From contig NC_008789.1 of assembly GCF_000015585.1 (NCBI RefSeq), forward strand, positions 1,260,001 to 1,292,000: DNA of 32,000 bases. Reading direction: 5' to 3'. The notes beneath the pieces are model-generated. The model was not told where the DNA came from, searched no databases, and was given only the letters and a program-made list of their open reading frames with translations. This stretch comes from Halorhodospira halophila SL1 (lineage in GTDB: Bacteria > Pseudomonadota > Gammaproteobacteria > Nitrococcales > Halorhodospiraceae). Position numbers and translations under genes: made by a program. Shown here piece after piece: positions 1 to 27,302 of the stretch (positions are counted from its first letter, which is position 1; every line of letters starts with the position of its first letter).

Positions 1-792
1 GTCGTCGGAGAGGGTGTTGCCGAGCTTGATGTTCTCGACCTGCTGGCCCTTGATCAGCATGTCCGCCTTGCAGATGGCGTAGGACTCCGGGTTGAGCTCC
101 TGGCCGTGCAGCGAAACGGTCACGTTATCGCTGACCTGCTGGATGTAGGCGTCACTCTCGGAGAGGAAGCCACCCGTGCCGGCGGCCGGGTCATAGACCG
201 TGACCACGCTGTGCGGTTGCAGCTTGTCGTCCTGATCGGTGAGCACCAGCGAGGTGGTCAGGTGGACCACGTCGCGGGGCGTGAAGTGCTCACCGGCGGT
301 CTCGTTGGAGCTCTCGGCGAACTTGCGGATCAGCTCCTCGAAGATCGAGCCCATGCCGAAGTTGGAGATCCGCCCGGGGCTGAGATCCATGGCCGCGAAG
401 CGCTGCACCACCTGGTAGAGCAGATTGTTCGCCGAGAGCTGCTGGACGAAGTCCTCGAAGTTGAAGTGCTCAAAGACCTCTCGGGCATCGGGGCTGAACG
501 ACTGGACGTAGCTCATCAGGTCGTCCGCGGTCTGCGTGTCCGACAGCGTCCCCAGGGTCAGCGGCGAGGTGTTGAAGAAAGGCTGATCGGCCGCCCGGCG
601 CAGAAGCCGCTCGCGCACCCCCAGCGGCTTGTCCGCGTGCTCCTTCGCCGCGGCCAGCACCTGCTCCTTGGTCGGCTCCAGGACGCACTCCAGCCGCCGC
701 AGCAGGGTAAACGGCAAGATGACCCGTCCGTACTGGGATTGCTTGAGATCGCCGCGCAGCAGGTCGGCGACCGACCAGATGAATCCGGCCAT
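1..792 (-). CDS. hsdM: Type I restriction-modification system DNA methyltransferase subunit M, N-terminal 264 codons; the 3' end lies outside the window.
   Basis: The minus-strand frame is open to the window edge, so it is absent from the ORF track. ATG at 792-790. Translation begins [44 protein letters not shown] (HsdM N-terminal domain). AdoMet motif [13 protein letters not shown] lies at about 163-198. The + ORF 106..987 is its antisense shadow. Confidence 0.9.
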
Positions 793-1250
793 CTGGGAGT
801 GATTCTCGGTGTTCAAGGCAGCTCCTTGTTGCTTGTTCGAACTGGAGGTCCTGTCTCCGGCACCGCGCACCGTATCCAGGTGCCGCGATGGCGCTGCTTG
901 GCCCCGGGCGGGGCATCCACCCGCCAAGCGCATGGGGATATTAGGCGTTATCAAGCCCCTAGGTCACAACCGTTGGAGTCCTTCTGACGCGAAGCTGGAG
1001 TAACGCGCAAGCACGGCTGGCGGTTCGGCAGAGATCCACTGTCAATGACAACCGACCTCGCAGGGTAGATGACCAAGGCGACAATCCGTGTCGCTTCCGC
1101 GCTGACATGTGTACCCCGGAAGGGCCCGACTTTGAGAGTCAAGTGGCTCTTGCGGGGTTCGGCGGGGGGGTGCGACCGCCGATCGACCTTGCACACACGG
1201 GCGTGATCTTCAGCGCTTGAGCGTTATCCGCGTGTGGACATAATGACCTC

Positions 1251-2117
1251 CGATACCCGTTTTGGTTAATTCTTAGGGGTACTGCCCCCCCCGATACCCC
1301 CTTTACAGAACCGCCCTGCGATTCCTGCTCCCGCGCTCGCGGCCGCGCAACGAACAATCAACAGGTTAATGATCCTCATGGGGTCGATACCCCCCTTGTA
1401 TGAGCCGGGTGGCACCATGCCTGGCGCTTCCCAAAAGCCGGCGAATCAAAACCTTGCGAACCAGAGGAGGTTCGATACCCCCTTGTATGAGCCGGGTGGT
1501 GCGACCCCTGGCGATTCCCAATTCGTTTTCATTCAGTCGCTTGCAGAACAGAGGGGGTCGATACCCCCCTTGTATGAGCCGGGTGGTAGCGATGCGTTCG
1601 TTATTGCGTACACCCGCAGAATCAGGCCACTGCGAACCATGCCCTTTCCGATACCCCCCTAGTATGCGCCGGGGGGTAGCGACCTTTTTGATTTTGCGTG
1701 GACCGGGATTATCAGCAGGTTGCACTTTATGCTCTGCTCGATACCCCCCTTGTATGAGCCGGGTGGCACCACGCCTTGCGCTTCCCAAAAGCCGGCGAAT
1801 CAACACGCTGCGAACCAGGGGGGTTCGATACCCCCCTTGTATGAGCCGGGAGGTATCGCCCCTTTCGATTTCGCGTAACTCAGGGGTATCAACAGGTTGC
1901 AACTTCTGCCCTGTCCGATACCCCCCTAGTATGAGCCGGGTGGCACCACGCCTGGCATTTCCCAAAAGCTGGCGAATCAACACGCTGCGAACCAAACGGG
2001 GCCGATACCCCCCTCGTATGAGCCGGGTGGCACCACCCCACATTCTGCCCATTTTCCGCCTGATCAGCGTTTTACTGAACAGACGGGCGCAATACCCCCC
2101 TTGTATGAGCCGGGTGG
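1251..2117. repeat. Tandem array: nine full copies plus two degenerate upstream copies of an ~88-bp unit with conserved 28-bp core CGATACCCCCCTTGTATGAGCCGGGTGG.
   Basis: Core starts are at 1385, 1473, 1559, 1649, 1739, 1826, 1916, 2003 and 2090, giving periods of 88, 86, 90, 90, 87, 90, 87 and 87. Degenerate CGATACCC copies sit at 1251 and 1292. The 59-62 bp inter-core segments fall into related families: those after copies 1, 5 and 7 are near-identical, and those after copies 4 and 6 are related. Confidence 0.9.
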
Positions 2118-2389
2118 TATCGAGCCGTACGCGTGTCACGAACATTGGGACACCTAGTCGGTCACAACACGCAGTCACATCGATTTCCCCCAAGGCCAGC
2201 CCCAAGCCACCCCAGCTGTGCAACGCTGGGGGCATCACCCCGGTTTTTCCCTTTCGTACTCGGGGCACGATGACTTGAATAAACTCTGCCAAGGCCGGCT
2301 CCGATGTTCTGCACCCAATTCCCTCGTATTTCGCCCATTGGCGCACCGCCCCCTGTACTAGGGGGTTTGCGTACCTTAAGAACCCACCG

Positions 2390-2500
2390 GTGTACCGCAC
2401 GGTGCTCTGTGTGTACTGCGCAGTTTTCAGCACGAAGCGACCACCCGCGCGGTGAGCCGGCGTGTACCGCCCGGTTTTCCCCGTGTACCGCGCGGTACAC
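2390..2500. repeat. Iteron cluster GTGTACCGC, a candidate origin or operator.
   Basis: GTGTACCGC at 2390-2398, GTGTACTGC at 2411-2419, GTGTACCGC at 2462-2470 and at 2483-2491. An inverted copy GCGGTACAC at 2492-2500 makes the perfect 18-bp palindrome GTGTACCGCGCGGTACAC. Spacings are 21, 51 and 21 bp. Confidence 0.75.
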
Positions 2501-2530
2501 CTTCGGCGTAGGAATCGCCGCAGCCGACGC

Positions 2531-3000
2531 TCAATCCGAAGGCAACCGCTGCACACCACCTGAGGAATGAGTTTGTAGGACACCCACCTGATATAGGCGG
2601 CGATGCCGAAGAGCGCGACGAGCGACTGAGATACGAGTACAACGGCCCGCGCCGTCCAACAGGCCAACAGCAACGGCAGGACGATCAGGACACCGACCAG
2701 CGCGCCCCGGCGCCAAACGCCGCAGCGTCAACATCGCCACCAATGCCGGAATCAGCACGAAGCTGCCAGTGAGTAGGGCCGCCAGAAAGTGGTGATACGC
2801 AAAGGCTGACCTCAGCCGGCTCAAGAGAACCTGGGTGAAAGTTGCGTAAAGCAGCACTGCGAGCATCGGCCCAGGCAGTAGTTCATGCGCCGCACCTGCA
2901 GCCCGCTATCCCTCCAAGAACAAGCCGGAACAGGATGGCCATCAGGTAGATCCAAGACTGGTGCCCCTCGGGGCTGAGCCGAATTGCGTACGGCGGCCAT
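2531..3000 (-). pseudogene. Frameshifted remnant of a small multi-pass membrane protein.
   Basis: Three consecutive minus-strand frame segments each read as hydrophobic helices. They are SPEGHQSWIYLMAILFRLVLGGIAG (about 2886-3000), MLAVLLYATFTQVLLSRLRSAFAYHHFLAALLTGSFVLIPALVAMLTL (2866 downward) and ALVGVLIVLPLLLACWTARAVVLVSQSLVALFGIAAYIRWVSYKLIPQ (about 2700-2550). Frame changes fall near 2885 and near the G/C run at about 2700. No family was recognised. Confidence 0.35.
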
Positions 3001-3351
3001 CTCCGACCCGCCTCGTCGCCGCACGCATTGATGTCTTCATGCCTCCAGCGGACTAGTGTTAGTCAACCCTCAAACGCATCCGACGTGGACTAGAACTAGA
3101 AGTCCCTGCCAAGGCGCCACAGCCACCCGCCACGCCCCCCTATATCACAGCTAGTTCGACACGCCGTTTTATCAGCCTCTGCCTCACCGGCCGCCGCGCA
3201 GCTGACCGTTACTCAGACGCCGACCAATGCGGGTCCGCGTCACGCGAATGCACTCAATGAGGCCACATTCCATGTCATTGACGACAAACACAAGCAGCGC
3301 TCTTCCTTAACGTCTACGGACACGTAACTGGACAACACGAGGAGGACACCG

Positions 3352-3567
3352 ATGGCTCATCCAGAAACTGCCGGCATTAAACCCAACGAGCGCTTGCTCC
3401 GTATCAACAGCGTTATCAAACGCGTCGGCCTTGGCCGATCGACGATTTACAAAAAAGTAAAGGAAGGTGGCTTCCCAAAACCTATAAAACTGGGTGAGCG
3501 TGCCATCGCCTGGCGGGAAAGCGACATTGAGGAATGGATTTCCCGCCGCCATCAAGCAGACTTCTAG
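3352..3567 (+). CDS. alpA: AlpA/Vis-family helix-turn-helix regulator or excisionase-like protein (71 aa).
   Basis: The translation LLRINSVIKRVGLGRSTIYKKVKEGGFPKPIKLGERAIAWRESDIEEWI is the typical AlpA (Phage_AlpA) HTH signature. A GAGGAGGA RBS lies 5-6 nt upstream of the ATG. Confidence 0.88.
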   Translation: MAHPETAGIKPNERLLRINSVIKRVGLGRSTIYKKVKEGGFPKPIKLGERAIAWRESDIEEWISRRHQADF

Positions 3568-3623
3568 CCCGACCTGCATCTTCGTTTCGCAGAAGAAGAG
3601 GACCAATCACTGGAGTCAGCACA

Positions 3624-6305
3624 ATGAAAACCATAGAGGAATCAGCAAAGGTATCGGTTATAACCGCCACGGGCCCAAGTCGGCTCACCGAGAGCTTCTC
3701 GATTTCTGGTCAGAACATAGAAAACGACCCTGGCCAACCGTTAGTTCGCGGTTTCTACCAACAGAGAACCTGCGCAACGCCGAGCGAACTCGCAGACCTG
3801 ATTAACTCACTAAAGCCAAATCAGGCATTGGCTTACGGTCTTTCAACGGTCGAACGCTCGCCGATTACATCCAGAAAATCTCGCCAAAGCAATGACATCT
3901 CGGTGACGCGTGAATTTTTTGATTGGCCCGCAGCTCCGGGGTGGCTTTTGATCGTTCACCACCCGCCTCGTGGTCACGAGCGCGCCGTAAGCCGTAGCGA
4001 CCTGCTGTCCGTGCTGCGCGAGGCCTGGCCGGGGATCGATTCCGCGCCTATGGTTTTCGCTGATGGAAGTACTTCTTGGATTTACAGCCAAGACACTGGC
4101 GAGTGCCTGATAGCCCAGAGGGGACTGCGCTGTTATGTGCTGGTATCGGATGCGCGTGATATCCCACGTGCCGGCAAAGTGCTGCATCAGCGCCTTTGGT
4201 TGACTGGACACGGATTCTACCACGTTAGCAAAGCCGGTTCTTTAGACGAAAAAAGCGCCGTCGATCCGACGGTCTGGCGGCCTGAGTACTTAGATAAGGT
4301 CGCGGGGGCACATTGCGAACCGCCACTCGAACAGCGTCGGAGACCCGCCGAGACAAGGAACACATACGCCGAGCCACTATCAACCGTAACAACCCTTCCA
4401 GATTTAACAGAAACGGAACGCAAACACGCGGAGTCGATAAAACAGGATGAACGTATTCAAAAGCATGCCGAGCAGGAGCAGGCCAAGAGAAACTGGGTTG
4501 AGGAACAAGTAGCTAGCACGAAACCAGAACATCAAAGGGCGCATCGGCTAAAACTGCTGGATGCGGTAGAAAACAAAAGGCTCCACGGGGGCTTCGTGCT
4601 CAAGCATTCCAGCGGCACGCACGTCACGGTTGCCAAACTGCTAGAAAATCCCGAGAGGTGGCACGGGGAGCGTTTTGCGGACCCATTAGAACCAGGCTGC
4701 GAGGGTAACTCCCGTGTAGCTTGGGCGAACCTCTATAGCGGTGGACGTCCGTATATCTACAGTCACGCGCACGGCGGGAGTCACTTCATTCTGCTCTGGG
4801 CGTCGAAGGCTTTAACCGTCGAGTGCGGCGAAAGTCCACAGCTGTTGCAAGAGGTTGACAAATTGATTCGACAAGCCGGGGTCGTATTCCAGCGCGGAGG
4901 CCAGCTAGTTCGCGTGATTGACGACAAAGAGATCCACCATGTTGAGTTGCCCTGGCTCCGTACTCATATGGAAGAAATCGCAAGCTGGAAGCGTTATAAT
5001 GAAAAAAAGAAAAAATTAGTTGTCATCGATTCGCCAGCGGATCTAGCGAAGCGTTATCTCGCTTACCGCGGTGAGTGGAGCGTACCCGAACTCCAGGGTA
5101 TTATCCGCGGACCAATTCTTCGCCCCGATGGTTCGCTGCTCGACACACCGGGGTATGACCGGCAGACGGGACTGTTGCTAACCGCAGATAACCCGGAGCG
5201 TTGGCCGCGGATCCCAAAAAACCCGGATCATTCGGATGTGCGAGCTGCAGTAGAAAAGCTATGGGAGCCGTTCGCGCATTTCCCTTTCGTCGGAGACGTG
5301 AGCCGAGGTATTCAACTCGCTGCTTTATTGACTGCCGTCCAACGTCCCGTCTTAAATACCGCGCCGGCGTTCGCTTGGAACGCATACCGAGCCGGGACCG
5401 GGAAAAGCAAGGCGGCGAAGGCCACGTCGTGGCTGGGCGGCTCTTGCGCGGAAGAGTCACCGTGGAGTGAGCAAACAGAGGAGCAGCGTAAACGGCTTAT
5501 GTCGGCGCTCATGGCGGGGCCATCTACCATCTTGCTGGATAACATCAGCGGTCCGTTAGAGTCTGACACGCTATGCGCAATCCTTACTGCGTGCAGATTT
5601 CGAGACAGAAAATTGGGAGCGAGTGAAGAGGTAACGGTACCGACGAATGTTCTTATTACCGCAACTGGCAACAACCTGCGGGTGGTAGGTGACCTGAGCC
5701 GACGTATTCTTGTTGCGACGATCGACCACGCGGTCGAGAACCCAGAGCGTCTTAATTTTCCATTCGATCCGGTAGCCCGCATCCAAGAGCGATGGTTACA
5801 CTATCGCGCCGCAGCACTGACCGTGTTACGTGGATTTATCTCGGCCGGGGCGCCAGCATTAGGGAAAGGGCTGATGGGCAGCTATGAGCAATGGGATGCC
5901 CAAATCCGCCGGTGTATTATGTGGCTGAAGCACGAGGGCCTAACGCGATTTGGCGTTGAGGATCCCGCAGCCGGAATCCAGAAAAATTACGAGGCCGATC
6001 CGGAGACCGTATTGCTCCGCGCGCTCGTCAATATCTGGTATGAACGATATGATGATAGACCCGTACGTGTAGCCGATCTTATTAGCGACGCGCATGACGG
6101 CATTCCAGGCGCTGCACCGAGCGAAAATCGAGGTGCATTACTCGAAGCGCTTCAAGAAATCGCGGGCGAACCGGAACGTATTAATAGGCGACGATTGGGC
6201 CGATGGATCGAACGCCACGCGGGTCGCGTGATTGACGGGTTACGGATCGAGGAGGCTGGAAGTTGGCGCAGCCGGCGGCAGTGGAGGGTACAGCCTGTGC
6301 CGTGA
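3624..6305 (+). CDS. Island replication-type protein (893 aa). An uncharacterised N-terminal ~550 aa is followed by an SF3-helicase-like P-loop NTPase and a C-terminal putative winged-helix region, so the layout resembles P4 alpha or D5-like primase-helicases.
   Basis: ATG 3624 is preceded by GGAG at 3612-3615; the track ORF from 3534 overlaps alpA and was trimmed. Walker A is AYRAGTGKSKAAKA, Walker B-like is STILLDNISG, followed by VLITATGNN. The C-terminus reads INRRRLGRWIERHAGRVIDGLRIEE. Its position directly after alpA is typical of island replication genes. The primase function is not demonstrated from motifs. Confidence 0.6.
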   Translation: MKTIEESAKVSVITATGPSRLTESFSISGQNIENDPGQPLVRGFYQQRTCATPSELADLINSLKPNQALAYGLSTVERSPITSRKSRQSNDISVTREFFDWPAAPGWLLIVHHPPRGHERAVSRSDLLSVLREAWPGIDSAPMVFADGSTSWIYSQDTGECLIAQRGLRCYVLVSDARDIPRAGKVLHQRLWLTGHGFYHVSKAGSLDEKSAVDPTVWRPEYLDKVAGAHCEPPLEQRRRPAETRNTYAEPLSTVTTLPDLTETERKHAESIKQDERIQKHAEQEQAKRNWVEEQVASTKPEHQRAHRLKLLDAVENKRLHGGFVLKHSSGTHVTVAKLLENPERWHGERFADPLEPGCEGNSRVAWANLYSGGRPYIYSHAHGGSHFILLWASKALTVECGESPQLLQEVDKLIRQAGVVFQRGGQLVRVIDDKEIHHVELPWLRTHMEEIASWKRYNEKKKKLVVIDSPADLAKRYLAYRGEWSVPELQGIIRGPILRPDGSLLDTPGYDRQTGLLLTADNPERWPRIPKNPDHSDVRAAVEKLWEPFAHFPFVGDVSRGIQLAALLTAVQRPVLNTAPAFAWNAYRAGTGKSKAAKATSWLGGSCAEESPWSEQTEEQRKRLMSALMAGPSTILLDNISGPLESDTLCAILTACRFRDRKLGASEEVTVPTNVLITATGNNLRVVGDLSRRILVATIDHAVENPERLNFPFDPVARIQERWLHYRAAALTVLRGFISAGAPALGKGLMGSYEQWDAQIRRCIMWLKHEGLTRFGVEDPAAGIQKNYEADPETVLLRALVNIWYERYDDRPVRVADLISDAHDGIPGAAPSENRGALLEALQEIAGEPERINRRRLGRWIERHAGRVIDGLRIEEAGSWRSRRQWRVQPVP

Positions 6306-7398: not shown

Positions 7399-7626
7399 TT
7401 ACGAGTGTTTGATCCGGATGCCGAGCACGGCCAGGAACTGAGCGATCCACTGCGGATGCGCAGGCCAGGCCGGTGCGGTGACCTGCTTGCCGCTGGTGGT
7501 CGCGTCGGCAACCGAGATATCGACGTAGGTGCCACCGGCCATCCTCACCTCCAGATCACAGGCCGGGTGCGCACTGCATGGGCGCCCTTCGATCATGTGT
7601 TCCCGGCCATCGTTACTAGCCTCCAT
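7399..7626 (-). CDS. Hypothetical small protein (75 aa, or 65 aa from an internal Met).
   Basis: This ORF lies just upstream of, and on the same strand as, 7025..7336 with a 62-nt gap. The translation is MEASNDGREHMIEGRPCSAHPACDLEVRMAGGTYVDISVADATTSGKQVTAPAWPAHPQWIAQFLAVLGIRIKHS. No family was recognised. Confidence 0.4.
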   Translation of the reverse strand: MEASNDGREHMIEGRPCSAHPACDLEVRMAGGTYVDISVADATTSGKQVTAPAWPAHPQWIAQFLAVLGIRIKHS

Positions 7627-8608: not shown

Positions 8609-9133
8609 ATGACAGAACGGCAACGGCTATTCTTCGCCCTCTGGCCACCGGCGCACCTGCGCGAGCGCCTCACCGCGGTGCAGGGCGAACTCGGACGGAT
8701 CGGCCGGCCGGTCGCCGCGGAGCGGCTGCACCTGACCGTGGCCTTTCTCGGCAACAGCGATCCGGAGCGGGCCACCGAGGCGGCGGCGGCCGCGACCCGC
8801 GAGGCCCGCGGCTTTGTGCTCCGGCTCGACCGTTTCGGCCACTTCGTGCGGAGCGGCGTGGTGTGGATGGCGCCGACGGAGTACCCGAACGCGCTGGAGA
8901 CGCTGCACCGCCGGCTACGCCGCGAGCTGCGGCGCCGGGGACTGCGCACCGAGCGCCGCTCGCTGCACCCCCACGTAACCCTCTTTCGCAAGGCGACCCC
9001 GAGCGGTCCGCATCCTGCGGCTTCGCTGGAGTGGCCGGTGGACGAACTGACGCTCGTGGCTTCCGTCACGCGTGCGGAAGGGCCGGAGTATCACCGCGCC
9101 GGTGCCTGGCGGCTGCCCCTCGGCGAAGGCTAG
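8609..9133 (+). CDS. thpR: RNA 2',3'-cyclic phosphodiesterase (2H phosphoesterase, LigT/ThpR).
   Basis: Two HxT motifs are present (LHLTVAFLG and HPHVTLFR) in a protein of about 174 aa. The start was trimmed to ATG 8609 (MTERQRLFFALWPP). Confidence 0.85.
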   Translation: MTERQRLFFALWPPAHLRERLTAVQGELGRIGRPVAAERLHLTVAFLGNSDPERATEAAAAATREARGFVLRLDRFGHFVRSGVVWMAPTEYPNALETLHRRLRRELRRRGLRTERRSLHPHVTLFRKATPSGPHPAASLEWPVDELTLVASVTRAEGPEYHRAGAWRLPLGEG

Positions 9134-9367
9134 GCCGGTGTAGTCATCAGTGTGCCGCTGGTGATCGCTTCGGCGGCCGCCATATCGTCGAGGCGCCGAT
9201 GCTTCGCCCTTCCACACGCCCGGAAGGACGAGGGCGTCGCAGTCACGCGCGCACGGTCTCGGCGATCGTGCAGGCAAGGGTCCTTGAACATTGGTGCATG
9301 CCATTCCGTGAATATGTAGGATGATGTCCGGCCATCCCGCGTCAGTCACGCAAGAGGGCTAAGGACC

Positions 9368-27113: not shown

Positions 27114-27302
27114 GGACACCCCCCGCGCATGCCGTACAGGCCTGCCCTTGAACCCTTCGGTTCAGGTAGGGACGGGGGGAGCTGCCTTAGGCTTTCCGCT
27201 CGCGGCGGACATGCACACCGGTCAACCCACGCCCGGTCCCTTGGGCATTGCTCTGAGGCTCAAGATAACTCGGCCTGAGATCGAACACCGCAGGGGATGT
27301 CG
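27114..27302 (-). ncRNA. ssrS: 6S RNA.
   Basis: It occupies the canonical zapA-ssrS-fau position. The minus-strand sequence CCUGAACCGAAGGGUUCAAGGGCAGGCCUGUACGGCAUGCGCGGGG closely resembles the 3' arm of E. coli 6S RNA (CCUUGAACCAAGGGUUCAAGGGUUACAGCCUGCGGCGGCAUCUCGG). The 5' GACAUCCCCUGCG pairs with the 3' CGCGGGGGGUGUC to give a 13-bp closing stem. Ends are approximate, within about 5 nt. Confidence 0.8.

Follow-up and report, generated by a model that had tools for sequence, protein, structure and literature searches.

A long-period tandem repeat array with IHF-type motifs in Halorhodospira halophila: a non-coding and possibly scaffold-forming element beside a type I restriction-modification operon

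Background

What is the function, if any, of a 28-bp sequence that recurs nine times at intervals of 86-90 bp between a restriction-modification (RM) operon and a replication gene? This question is raised by a 32-kb stretch of the Halorhodospira halophila SL1 chromosome (contig NC_008789.1, positions 1,260,001 to 1,292,000; hereafter the window, whose own numbering is used throughout), in which a tandem repeat array is flanked on one side by the 5' end of hsdM, the methylase gene of a type I RM system, and on the other by a module consisting of alpA and a gene for an 893-aa protein. An earlier note on this DNA had drawn attention to the array and had favoured a cis-acting role connected with the neighbouring replication module. 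Here we show that the array is non-coding, and that two separate blocks within its units are conserved, namely the 28-bp core and a second block that matches the consensus of integration host factor (IHF). Coding, CRISPR, and known-RNA readings could be excluded, and the predicted IHF sites in each unit provide a concrete, testable handle on the function of the array.

Methods

Repeats were delineated using TRF, pattern matching, and pairwise alignment, and motif counts in the window were compared with chance expectation and with 100 shuffled sequences. Translations, RNA families, and tRNA genes were searched for using NCBIfam, PHROGs, Rfam, and ARAGORN, and the 893-aa protein was modelled with AlphaFold2 and compared with known structures using Foldseek. 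The comparison set comprised 73 distinct loci (79 locus ids, of which 6 were duplicates or overlapping fragments; approximately 0.66 Mb), made up of 6 genome loci, 63 metagenome loci, and 4 loci around close hsdM homologues. Homologues of the 893-aa protein accounted for 69 distinct loci (75 locus ids, 6 duplicates or overlapping fragments). Loci were screened for arrays with a period of at least 25 and at least 2.5 copies, or for a periodic 11-mer repeated at least 4 times.

Results and discussion

Anatomy of the array

The core, CGATACCCCCCTTGTATGAGCCGGGTGG, occurs with 0-3 mismatches at 1385, 1559, 1649, 1739, 1826, 1916, 2003, and 2090, against a chance expectation of 0.00, and a ninth copy at 1473 has one C deleted from its C-run. 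The nine cores, each of which opens one of the units u1 to u9, span 1385-2117; all cores (9-11, when degenerate ones are counted) lie on the plus strand. Core-to-core periods are 88, 86, 90, 90, 87, 90, 87, and 87 bp, and TRF reports periods of 87, 177, and 354 for the array. The units are of two types, A (u1, u5, and u7, with the more diverged u2 and u8) and B (u3, u4, and u6, with the more diverged u9), from which a higher-order 177-bp repeat of A + B is built. Whole-unit identity is 83-90% among u1, u5, and u7 and 71% between u4 and u6, and alignment of the spacers (z-scores of up to 14.7) divides them into two groups of homologues. Degenerate copies extend the array at both ends (Table 1). 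The spacer of the upstream unit 0 is unrelated to the other spacers apart from its IHF motif (alignment z < 2), and the degenerate tenth core at 2180 is positioned exactly one period beyond core 9. A partial inverted copy of the core further downstream may be due to chance.

The earlier note had listed the same nine core positions, degenerate copies at 1251 and 1292, spacers that are diverged relatives of one another, and a core position occupied by T, A, or C, all of which are borne out here. It had counted seven of the eight periods as multiples of 3, where the actual number is six. Its 11-bp inverted repeat, formed by extension of the core, does exist in u3, u6, and u9, but with two arm mismatches rather than one in u9, and the note missed the extension present in u4 (10/11).

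The only other assemblies of the locus are two Logan short-read assemblies (L001 and L009). These are independent assemblies of this strain, are identical, and both break within the array, starting at window position 1742 inside core 5. Short-read data fail to resolve the array.

A second conserved block matches the IHF consensus

Outside the core, a second conserved block, situated midway between cores in each unit, matches the IHF consensus WATCAANNNNTTR. Perfect matches to this consensus in the window, counted on both strands, number three (at 1356, 1444, and 1887), where 0.14 are expected; all three belong to the array, lie on the plus strand, and share one phase, and none of the 100 shuffles reached three. 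A relaxed form, WATCARNNNNYTG, has seven matches versus 0.52 expected, six of which fall within the array at the common phase. The motif begins 32-34 bp past the end of a core and 28-29 bp ahead of the next.

Mean pairwise identity along the unit amounts to 94.9% for core columns, 75% for the nine specified positions of the IHF motif, and 37.5% for the four N positions inside that same motif, while the core-to-IHF spacer and the IHF-to-core linker stand at 50% and 43%, respectively. Given that the core and the specified IHF positions are conserved and the other columns are at 37-50%, each unit contains two islands under selection, and the pattern of identity is that expected if selection acts on the positions read by IHF. 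Unit 0, in which the core has decayed and the spacer is unrelated, has nevertheless kept a perfect IHF motif.

These values bear directly on the possibility that the array is a functionless minisatellite (variable number tandem repeat) that arose through slippage or unequal recombination while a mobile-element remnant was decaying, and whose core is conserved by homogenisation only. Such an origin would be in keeping with the 177-bp higher-order duplication, with the degraded end units at 1251, 1292, and 2180 (as expected if units are homogenised from the middle), with the lack of relatives of the array anywhere searched, and with a region of decayed sequence that is without the integrase, att site, and tRNA of its relatives. 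Homogenisation, however, should cover whole units, yet the core is at 95% and the flanking spacers are at 43-50%. Divergence is uneven even within the IHF motif, the specified positions being kept and the N positions free, and the perfect motif of unit 0 is embedded in an unrelated spacer. We consider a functionless minisatellite unlikely.

The positions listed in Table 1 are IHF binding sites by prediction from their consensus match. The u6 site, TATCAACAGGTTGCAAC (TATCAA-CAGG-TTGCAAC), resembles the lambda H' site (TATCAA-TTTG-TTGCAAC), and the type A units carry an A4 tract 7 bp upstream of the motif, presumably comparable to the A-tract of lambda H'. In the IHF-H' complex, the bend centre is located just 5' of WATCAA; on this basis, the bend centre in the array would be approximately 30 bp from each flanking core.

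A possible DNA scaffold

Beyond these observations, we infer IHF binding, folding, a core-binding protein, and a role for the array, and tentatively favour, at a probability that falls somewhat short of even, a non-coding cis-acting DNA scaffold in which IHF bends the spacers and juxtaposes the cores for a putative core-binding protein. The scaffold would be composed of ten or eleven head-to-tail modules, each with a 28-bp asymmetric recognition sequence and an IHF site midway to the next core. IHF would bend each spacer sharply, and with a bend centre some 30 bp past the end of one core and about as far ahead of the following one, neighbouring cores would come to lie side by side, such that the approximately 900-bp array would compact into a zig-zag. 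Folded in this manner, it could offer nine or more cores to a sequence-specific protein and thus act as a high-avidity binding or titration platform, possibly by helping to control or maintain the neighbouring DNA of horizontal origin, by separating the RM operon from the satellite remnant as a barrier, or by serving as a decoy. The logic would be that of P1 parS, lambda cosB, or the att arms, multiplied about ten-fold.

Several points weigh against such a scaffold. IHF binding is predicted from a consensus match only. AlpA and the 893-aa protein, a predicted PrimPol-helicase, are the obvious local candidates for a core-binding protein, and their 69 homologue loci are without an array. A simple protein site would not usually take the form of an invariant, non-palindromic 28-bp block whose centre is conserved, and variation in the distal right arm of the core fits a minus-strand hairpin, which hints at a role as RNA or single-stranded DNA, either instead or additionally. 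Finally, the array occurs once, which makes comparative support impossible.

Should the array indeed be bound by IHF together with a specific protein, it would offer a clean example from nature of a nucleoprotein scaffold with multiple U-turns and a long period (88 bp); to our knowledge, such architecture is known only in one- or two-site form, as in att sites, parS, and cosB. Its site at the junction between a type I RM operon and a PrimPol-helicase satellite remnant might reveal a device for mobile-element control or interference. It is important to note that the weight of the finding is limited by a single occurrence in one genome with no relatives, from which nothing general can be inferred.

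Table 1. Coordinates of the array, its predicted IHF sites, and flanking features in the window
Feature	Position	Strand	Basis
hsdM, 5' part; type I restriction-modification methylase gene	1..792	-	domain scan
Weak sigma-70-like promoter TTGAGC-16-CATAAT, pointing into the array	1217..1244	+	promoter scan
Degenerate core fragment CGATACCCG	1251..1259	+	read from sequence
Degenerate unit 0, decayed core CGATACCCCCTTTACAG...	1292..1384	+	read from sequence, alignment
IHF consensus AATCAACAGGTTA, perfect, unit 0	1356..1368	+	motif scan
Nine full units of 86-90 bp, 28-bp core followed by 59-62-bp spacer	1385..2179	+	TRF, pattern match, alignments
IHF consensus AATCAAAACCTTG, perfect, u1	1444..1456	+	motif scan
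IHF-like ATTCAGTCGCTTG, 2 mismatches, u2, in phase	1531..1543	+	read from alignment
IHF-like AATCAGGCCACTG, u3	1620..1632	+	relaxed motif scan
IHF-like TATCAGCAGGTTG, 1 mismatch, u4	1710..1722	+	relaxed motif scan
IHF-like AATCAACACGCTG, 1 mismatch, u5	1798..1810	+	relaxed motif scan
IHF consensus TATCAACAGGTTG, perfect, u6, continuing as TTGCAAC	1887..1899	+	motif scan
IHF-like AATCAACACGCTG, 1 mismatch, u7	1975..1987	+	relaxed motif scan
IHF-like GATCAGCGTTTTA, 2 mismatches, u8, in phase	2062..2074	+	read from alignment
Degenerate tenth core CGATTTCCCCCAAGGCCAGCCCCAAGCC (also written CGATTTCCCCCAAGG)	2180..2207	+	read from sequence
Weak terminator-like hairpin followed by T-run, past the array	2225..2254	+	terminator scan
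Partial inverted core copy CGCAAACCCCCTAGTACAGGG, possibly chance	2351..2371	-	inverted repeat, 19 nt, 79%
alpA (Phage_AlpA HTH protein)	3352..3567	+	family-library match
893-aa PrimPol + SF3/D5-type helicase, Pri-Rep type (predicted)	3624..6305	+	PHROG match, AlphaFold2, Foldseek

Absence of a coding signal

One frame on each strand runs through the array without a stop codon, which raises the possibility of a gene for a 29-30-residue repeat protein, which would contain ...TRLIQGGYR... if encoded in the minus frame and ...RYPPCMSRV... if encoded in the plus frame. In favour of such a gene, both frames remain open throughout, six of the eight periods are multiples of 3 with the 88 + 86 pair compensating, and the minus frame is called by the gene caller on the Logan contigs. 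However, because units copy 87-bp and 90-bp types, the multiple-of-3 periods shrink to two or three independent events. Pairwise differences per codon position in both open frames are 0.371, 0.360, and 0.354, with no third-position excess (chi-square p = 0.71 for the spread over codon positions in close unit pairs), and all seven core substitutions are non-synonymous in both frames (0 synonymous). Neither frame yielded a match in NCBIfam or PHROGs, and a search of 5.8 billion clusters revealed no homologue of the minus-frame product; against 1.84 billion representatives this product returned one weak match only (P0121), an unrelated REP-like repeat open reading frame (ORF) with a 55-residue repeat, which was rejected as a relative of the array. 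We conclude that the array is non-coding, and a repeat-protein gene appears extremely improbable.

These results uphold much of what the earlier note had proposed on this subject. The open frame on each strand, the 10 positions at which u5 and u7 differ, and the spread of differences over codon positions are all as it reported, and no protein-family match, which it held would turn the array into a gene, was found in the collections above. Its view that the array is non-coding and most likely cis-acting is in line with the lack of a codon signal and of homologues, and with conservation that is confined to the core and the IHF-type motif.

A minus-strand hairpin and the RNA alternative

Together with the five bases that follow it, the core can form a hairpin with 11-bp arms and an 11-nt loop, for which the minus-strand consensus is 5'-YGRURCCNCCC GGCUCAUACAA GGGGGGUAUCG-3'. 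On the minus strand, the stem is kept in both unit types via G·U pairs. Paired cells amount to 88.8% on the minus strand versus 73.5% on the plus strand, pairs that vary on one side yet are still paired number 5 versus 1, and mean hairpin energies are -13.2 and -9.7 kcal/mol, respectively. All four stem transitions, as well as both changes at the mismatch position, are compatible with pairing on the minus strand only, and the loop and proximal stem are the most conserved parts of the hairpin.

From this pattern it may be argued that the array, read from the minus strand, gives rise to an RNA array that is structured or processed, or to a series of single-stranded DNA hairpins. The hairpin would be recognised by a protein, as with CRISPR pre-crRNA, ToxI-type repeat RNA, or protein-sponge RNA, and the transcript would run towards hsdM. 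The hairpin signal is only suggestive, given that one arm is invariant and no two-sided compensatory change occurs in the hairpin. Four wobble-compatible transitions would arise without structure at p ~1/16, and three of the four come from a single lineage (type A). Upstream of the array on the minus strand there is no promoter-like site. On the plus strand, a promoter-like and a terminator-like sequence do bracket the array (Table 1), both at chance frequency: the former is the sole 9/12 site in 800-3700 (1 found versus 1.0 expected), and the latter is one of four sites versus 2.9 expected, with a fold no better than that of shuffled sequence. A search of the window against Rfam returned nothing relevant for the array at the gathering threshold and two chance-level matches only at E <= 10, ARAGORN detected no tRNA or tmRNA, and whole-unit RNA folds on either strand were no better than those of shuffled sequence. 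No nuclease, toxin, or cas gene was found (see below). Furthermore, the IHF block is a double-stranded DNA protein motif with freely varying unspecified positions, which an RNA role leaves unexplained. An RNA or single-stranded DNA element is, in our judgement, a rival of fairly low probability.

Resemblance to a tRNA T-arm at the GGGGG-TTCGATA-CCCCC junctions was also considered. It was rejected on three counts: CTTGTAT would make an implausible acceptor strand, type B units are not followed by the junction, and the window does not contain the tRNA-Asn att core present in the relatives.

A further proposal, to which we attach little credence, is a hitherto undescribed kind of IHF-scaffolded repeat device of a satellite or defence island, acting either as a DNA decoy or titration platform, or as the template of a minus-strand hairpin-repeat RNA. 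In its decoy form, the device may capture a DNA-binding protein of a helper phage or of the host, for example a terminase small subunit, a repressor, or an initiator; in its RNA form, the hairpin-repeat RNA may work with the neighbouring RM system or with satellite genes. Either form, if true, would represent a new cis or RNA component of mobile-element conflict.

Distribution of the array and its relationship to the replication module

The 893-aa protein has no Pfam or NCBIfam match and no PDB relative by sequence, but PHROG DNA-primase families were matched and the family is widespread, with 256 matches at E <= 0.001, many of them metagenomic. An AlphaFold2 model built with 28 homologues (mean pLDDT 85, pTM 0.80) was matched by Foldseek to full-length African swine fever virus (ASFV) PrimPol, the monkeypox E5 and vaccinia D5 primase-helicases, and PriRep1, at E-values between 1e-9 and 1e-6. 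Because these matches are to full-length PrimPol-helicases, the modelled fold identifies the protein as a PrimPol plus SF3-helicase replication initiator, consistent with the replication protein proposed earlier.

An analogous array was found at none of the 73 loci (0/69 homologue loci of the 893-aa protein and 0/4 hsdM loci). The only tandem row returned was a 108-bp x 2.7 repeat in L053 that is 100% identical between copies and unlike the H. halophila array. Several of the array-free homologue loci are complete int-alpA-primase elements integrated at tRNA-Asn, and the close hsdM homologues have other neighbours. The core was absent from the 73 loci at up to 9 mismatches, bar one 9-mismatch chance match, and at the same threshold no further copy was detected elsewhere in the window (~31 kb) or in three further Halorhodospira contigs (L006 from H. 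halophila, L007, and L008), which together provide ~62 kb of Halorhodospira DNA. The core pattern had no match in metagenome and viral contigs, nor in genome contigs, a scan that did not return the H. halophila locus itself either; core sub-patterns gave single partial matches in viral contigs at chance level only. The whole array had no blastn match among plasmids and phages. Querying the genome-contig collection with the 893-aa protein produced no related loci, and in the literature nothing relevant was found on Halorhodospira transcriptomes or REPs, or on tandem IHF-site arrays.

As no array was present at the 73 loci and no core match in the collections searched, the array is a single-genome orphan and not a conserved part of either neighbouring gene set. 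The earlier note had recognised no described element with this architecture, and this is still the case given that Rfam offered nothing and the core went unmatched in genome, metagenome, viral, plasmid, and phage collections. In contrast, the functional tie to the island replication module that it had drawn is unsupported, because the co-occurrence check yielded no analogous array at 69 homologue loci and the core was unmatched in the collections. The origin, partition, or packaging roles that it suggested are conjecture. Its cis-acting reading is supported in part and is made more specific by the predicted IHF sites.

The relatives also indicate what the H. halophila module lacks. In Alkalilimnicola ehrlichii (L002 7785-16925) and Spiribacter (L005 7841-17444), compact ~9-kb elements composed of int-alpA-primase plus about 5 small genes end at tRNA-Asn; of the two, only that of A. 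ehrlichii was read as having an att repeat, 47 bp in length. An Aquisalimonas locus has the int-alpA-primase order as well, with no tRNA found within its 22.7 kb. In H. halophila, alpA and the primase gene are all that the copy comprises: integrase, att repeat, tRNA, and downstream genes are missing from the window, and the module is a remnant or else belongs to a larger island that has been rearranged. In Halorhodospira halochloris (L008 1474-11980), a type I hsdR-hsdS-hsdM operon and a homologous primase-helicase gene face each other head-to-head, as they do in H. halophila, and juxtaposition of RM operon and satellite is thus found in more than one species of the genus. The hsdM genes are 71% identical at the DNA level, and the H. 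halochloris intergenic region is unrelated, with no repeats and no array.

Other repeats were encountered near some of these genes. In a Halorhodospira sp. metagenome-assembled genome (L007), 21-28-bp short tandem repeats at 3621-3738, ~275 bp downstream of the primase-helicase gene, occupy the usual position in Pri-Rep islands of an origin, for which they are a candidate. In A. ehrlichii, a tandem repeat (61 bp x 2.1; L002 7584-7711) directly flanks the attL copy of the element on its outer side and is unrelated in sequence to the array.

Comparison with known repeat systems

Repetitive extragenic palindromic sequences (REPs) occur in more than 100 copies per genome, are intergenic and, where clustered, alternate in orientation, and carry a conserved GTAG/GTGG head ahead of a GC-rich palindrome (PMC2817692). 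Among the bacterial interspersed mosaic elements (BIMEs) that they form in enterobacteria, BIME-1 linkers bind IHF, BIME-2 are tandem arrays, and tandem mosaics reach about 12 units (PMC2817692). The H. halophila array could accordingly be a local cluster of a species-specific dispersed REP/BIME or miniature inverted-repeat transposable element (MITE), with the imperfect palindrome of 28-33 bp as its REP, and with the spacer and its IHF site as the IHF-binding linker of a BIME-1 or reiterative IHF BIME (RIB). Imperfect palindromes alternate with linkers, an IHF site lies in the linker as in BIME-1 (PMC2817692), here at the motif level only, and the array is a mosaic of two unit types. All cores of the array, however, are direct, as opposed to the alternating REPs of BIMEs (PMC2817692), and a conserved GTAG/GTGG head is missing, GTAG following the core in u3 and u4 only. 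There is no further copy in the ~62 kb of Halorhodospira DNA, and the core is unmatched in the collections scanned, of which the genome-contig scan missed the H. halophila locus too. A dispersed REP-like origin appears improbable.

Similarity to a CRISPR array extends to a 28-bp direct repeat, regular spacing (86-90 bp), degenerate terminal repeats, and a possible repeat hairpin. IHF is used in CRISPR type I-E and I-F systems too, where it acts at the leader; the array differs in having an IHF motif in each unit and spacers of 59-62 bp that are mutually homologous. No Cas domain was present in the ORFs scanned across the window (32 kb), and no Rfam CRISPR-DR match was obtained even at E <= 10. 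A CRISPR array was rejected based on the homologous spacers (z up to 14.7; units up to 90% identical) and the lack of cas genes.

Among partition sites, P1 parS has ParB boxes on both arms of an IHF site, whose bend folds the arms together, and the sopC centromere of F consists of 12 tandem 43-bp repeats. The array shares with parS an IHF motif midway between its nine cores and the next (at the motif level only), and its copy number of ~10 is like that of sopC. It differs in its period (88 bp), in its 28-bp non-palindromic core, in being chromosomal within a degraded island, and in the lack of sequence similarity. Furthermore, the ORFs scanned to the left and right of the array within the window contained no parA/parB (or parM/parR) domains.

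Iterons, which adjoin the initiator gene, are 17-22 bp in length and spaced about 22 bp, usually some two helical turns, apart, and such arrays can titrate or handcuff their initiator. IHF is a frequent architectural partner of iteron arrays, as at the IHF sites of the R6K gamma ori; others include P1 incA and P4 ori/crr. Direct repeats near an initiator gene, here a predicted PrimPol-helicase 1.5 kb away, are an iteron-like feature of the array. With a core of 28 bp and a period of 88 bp, it is nonetheless less iteron-like than the GTGTACCGC repeats at 2389-2500, and no comparable array exists at the 69 distinct initiator-homologue loci.

Finally, the RNA arrays of ToxI-like type III toxin-antitoxin systems have units of about 36 nt. 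Like these, the array consists of tandem non-coding repeats that a single transcript could span, possibly between a promoter and a terminator, but its units are 88 nt and diverged. No endoribonuclease toxin gene follows the array, where ORFs 2304-2570 (plus strand) and 2531-2866 (minus strand) are without family matches.

A number of individual sites were also considered for the core or unit and rejected. No per-unit sigma-70 promoter reached 8/12 or more. The remainder were judged by eye: a sigma-54 promoter (TGGCAC-N6-TTGC) is present in u5 only and its spacing is off by one; a dif/Xer site fits in its 28 bp and TGTATG centre, with arms unlike those bound by XerC and XerD; a DnaA box, TATCAACA, departs at conserved positions; the P2 Ogr / P4 delta site TGT-N12-ACA reads TGT-N12-GCA or GTA in the array; and a CsrA site, AUACAAGG, is followed by GGG, not GGA, and lies within the stem.

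Genomic setting and minor observations

The hsdM gene is on the minus strand, and the array is located upstream of it on the same strand. The GC content is 58% in the array, 53-58% in the alpA-primase module, and 64-71% in hsdM and core genes. From ~9.7 kb on, the window contains core chromosomal genes, including fccB, ilvA, pepP, ubiH, and 6S RNA.

Between the array and alpA, five short GTGTACCGC-type repeats are clustered at 2389-2500, with a perfect 18-bp palindrome, GTGTACCGCGCGGTACAC, at 2483-2500 inside the cluster; these repeats, which are separate from the array, may serve the alpA-primase module as operator or origin. The adjoining region 2520-3041 (minus strand) resembles degraded coding sequence and holds the 111-aa ORF 2531-2866 mentioned above, which was called by gene callers on the Logan contigs and of which the long minus-strand ORF across the array is a frame-continuation. 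Further downstream, a 68-nt direct repeat (7458-7525 and 9123-9190; 76% identity, 1.7 kb apart) is situated between the island remnant and fccB, and the 6S RNA gene (ssrS) was identified in the core-genome part of the window at 27116-27299 on the minus strand (Rfam, 70.6 bits).

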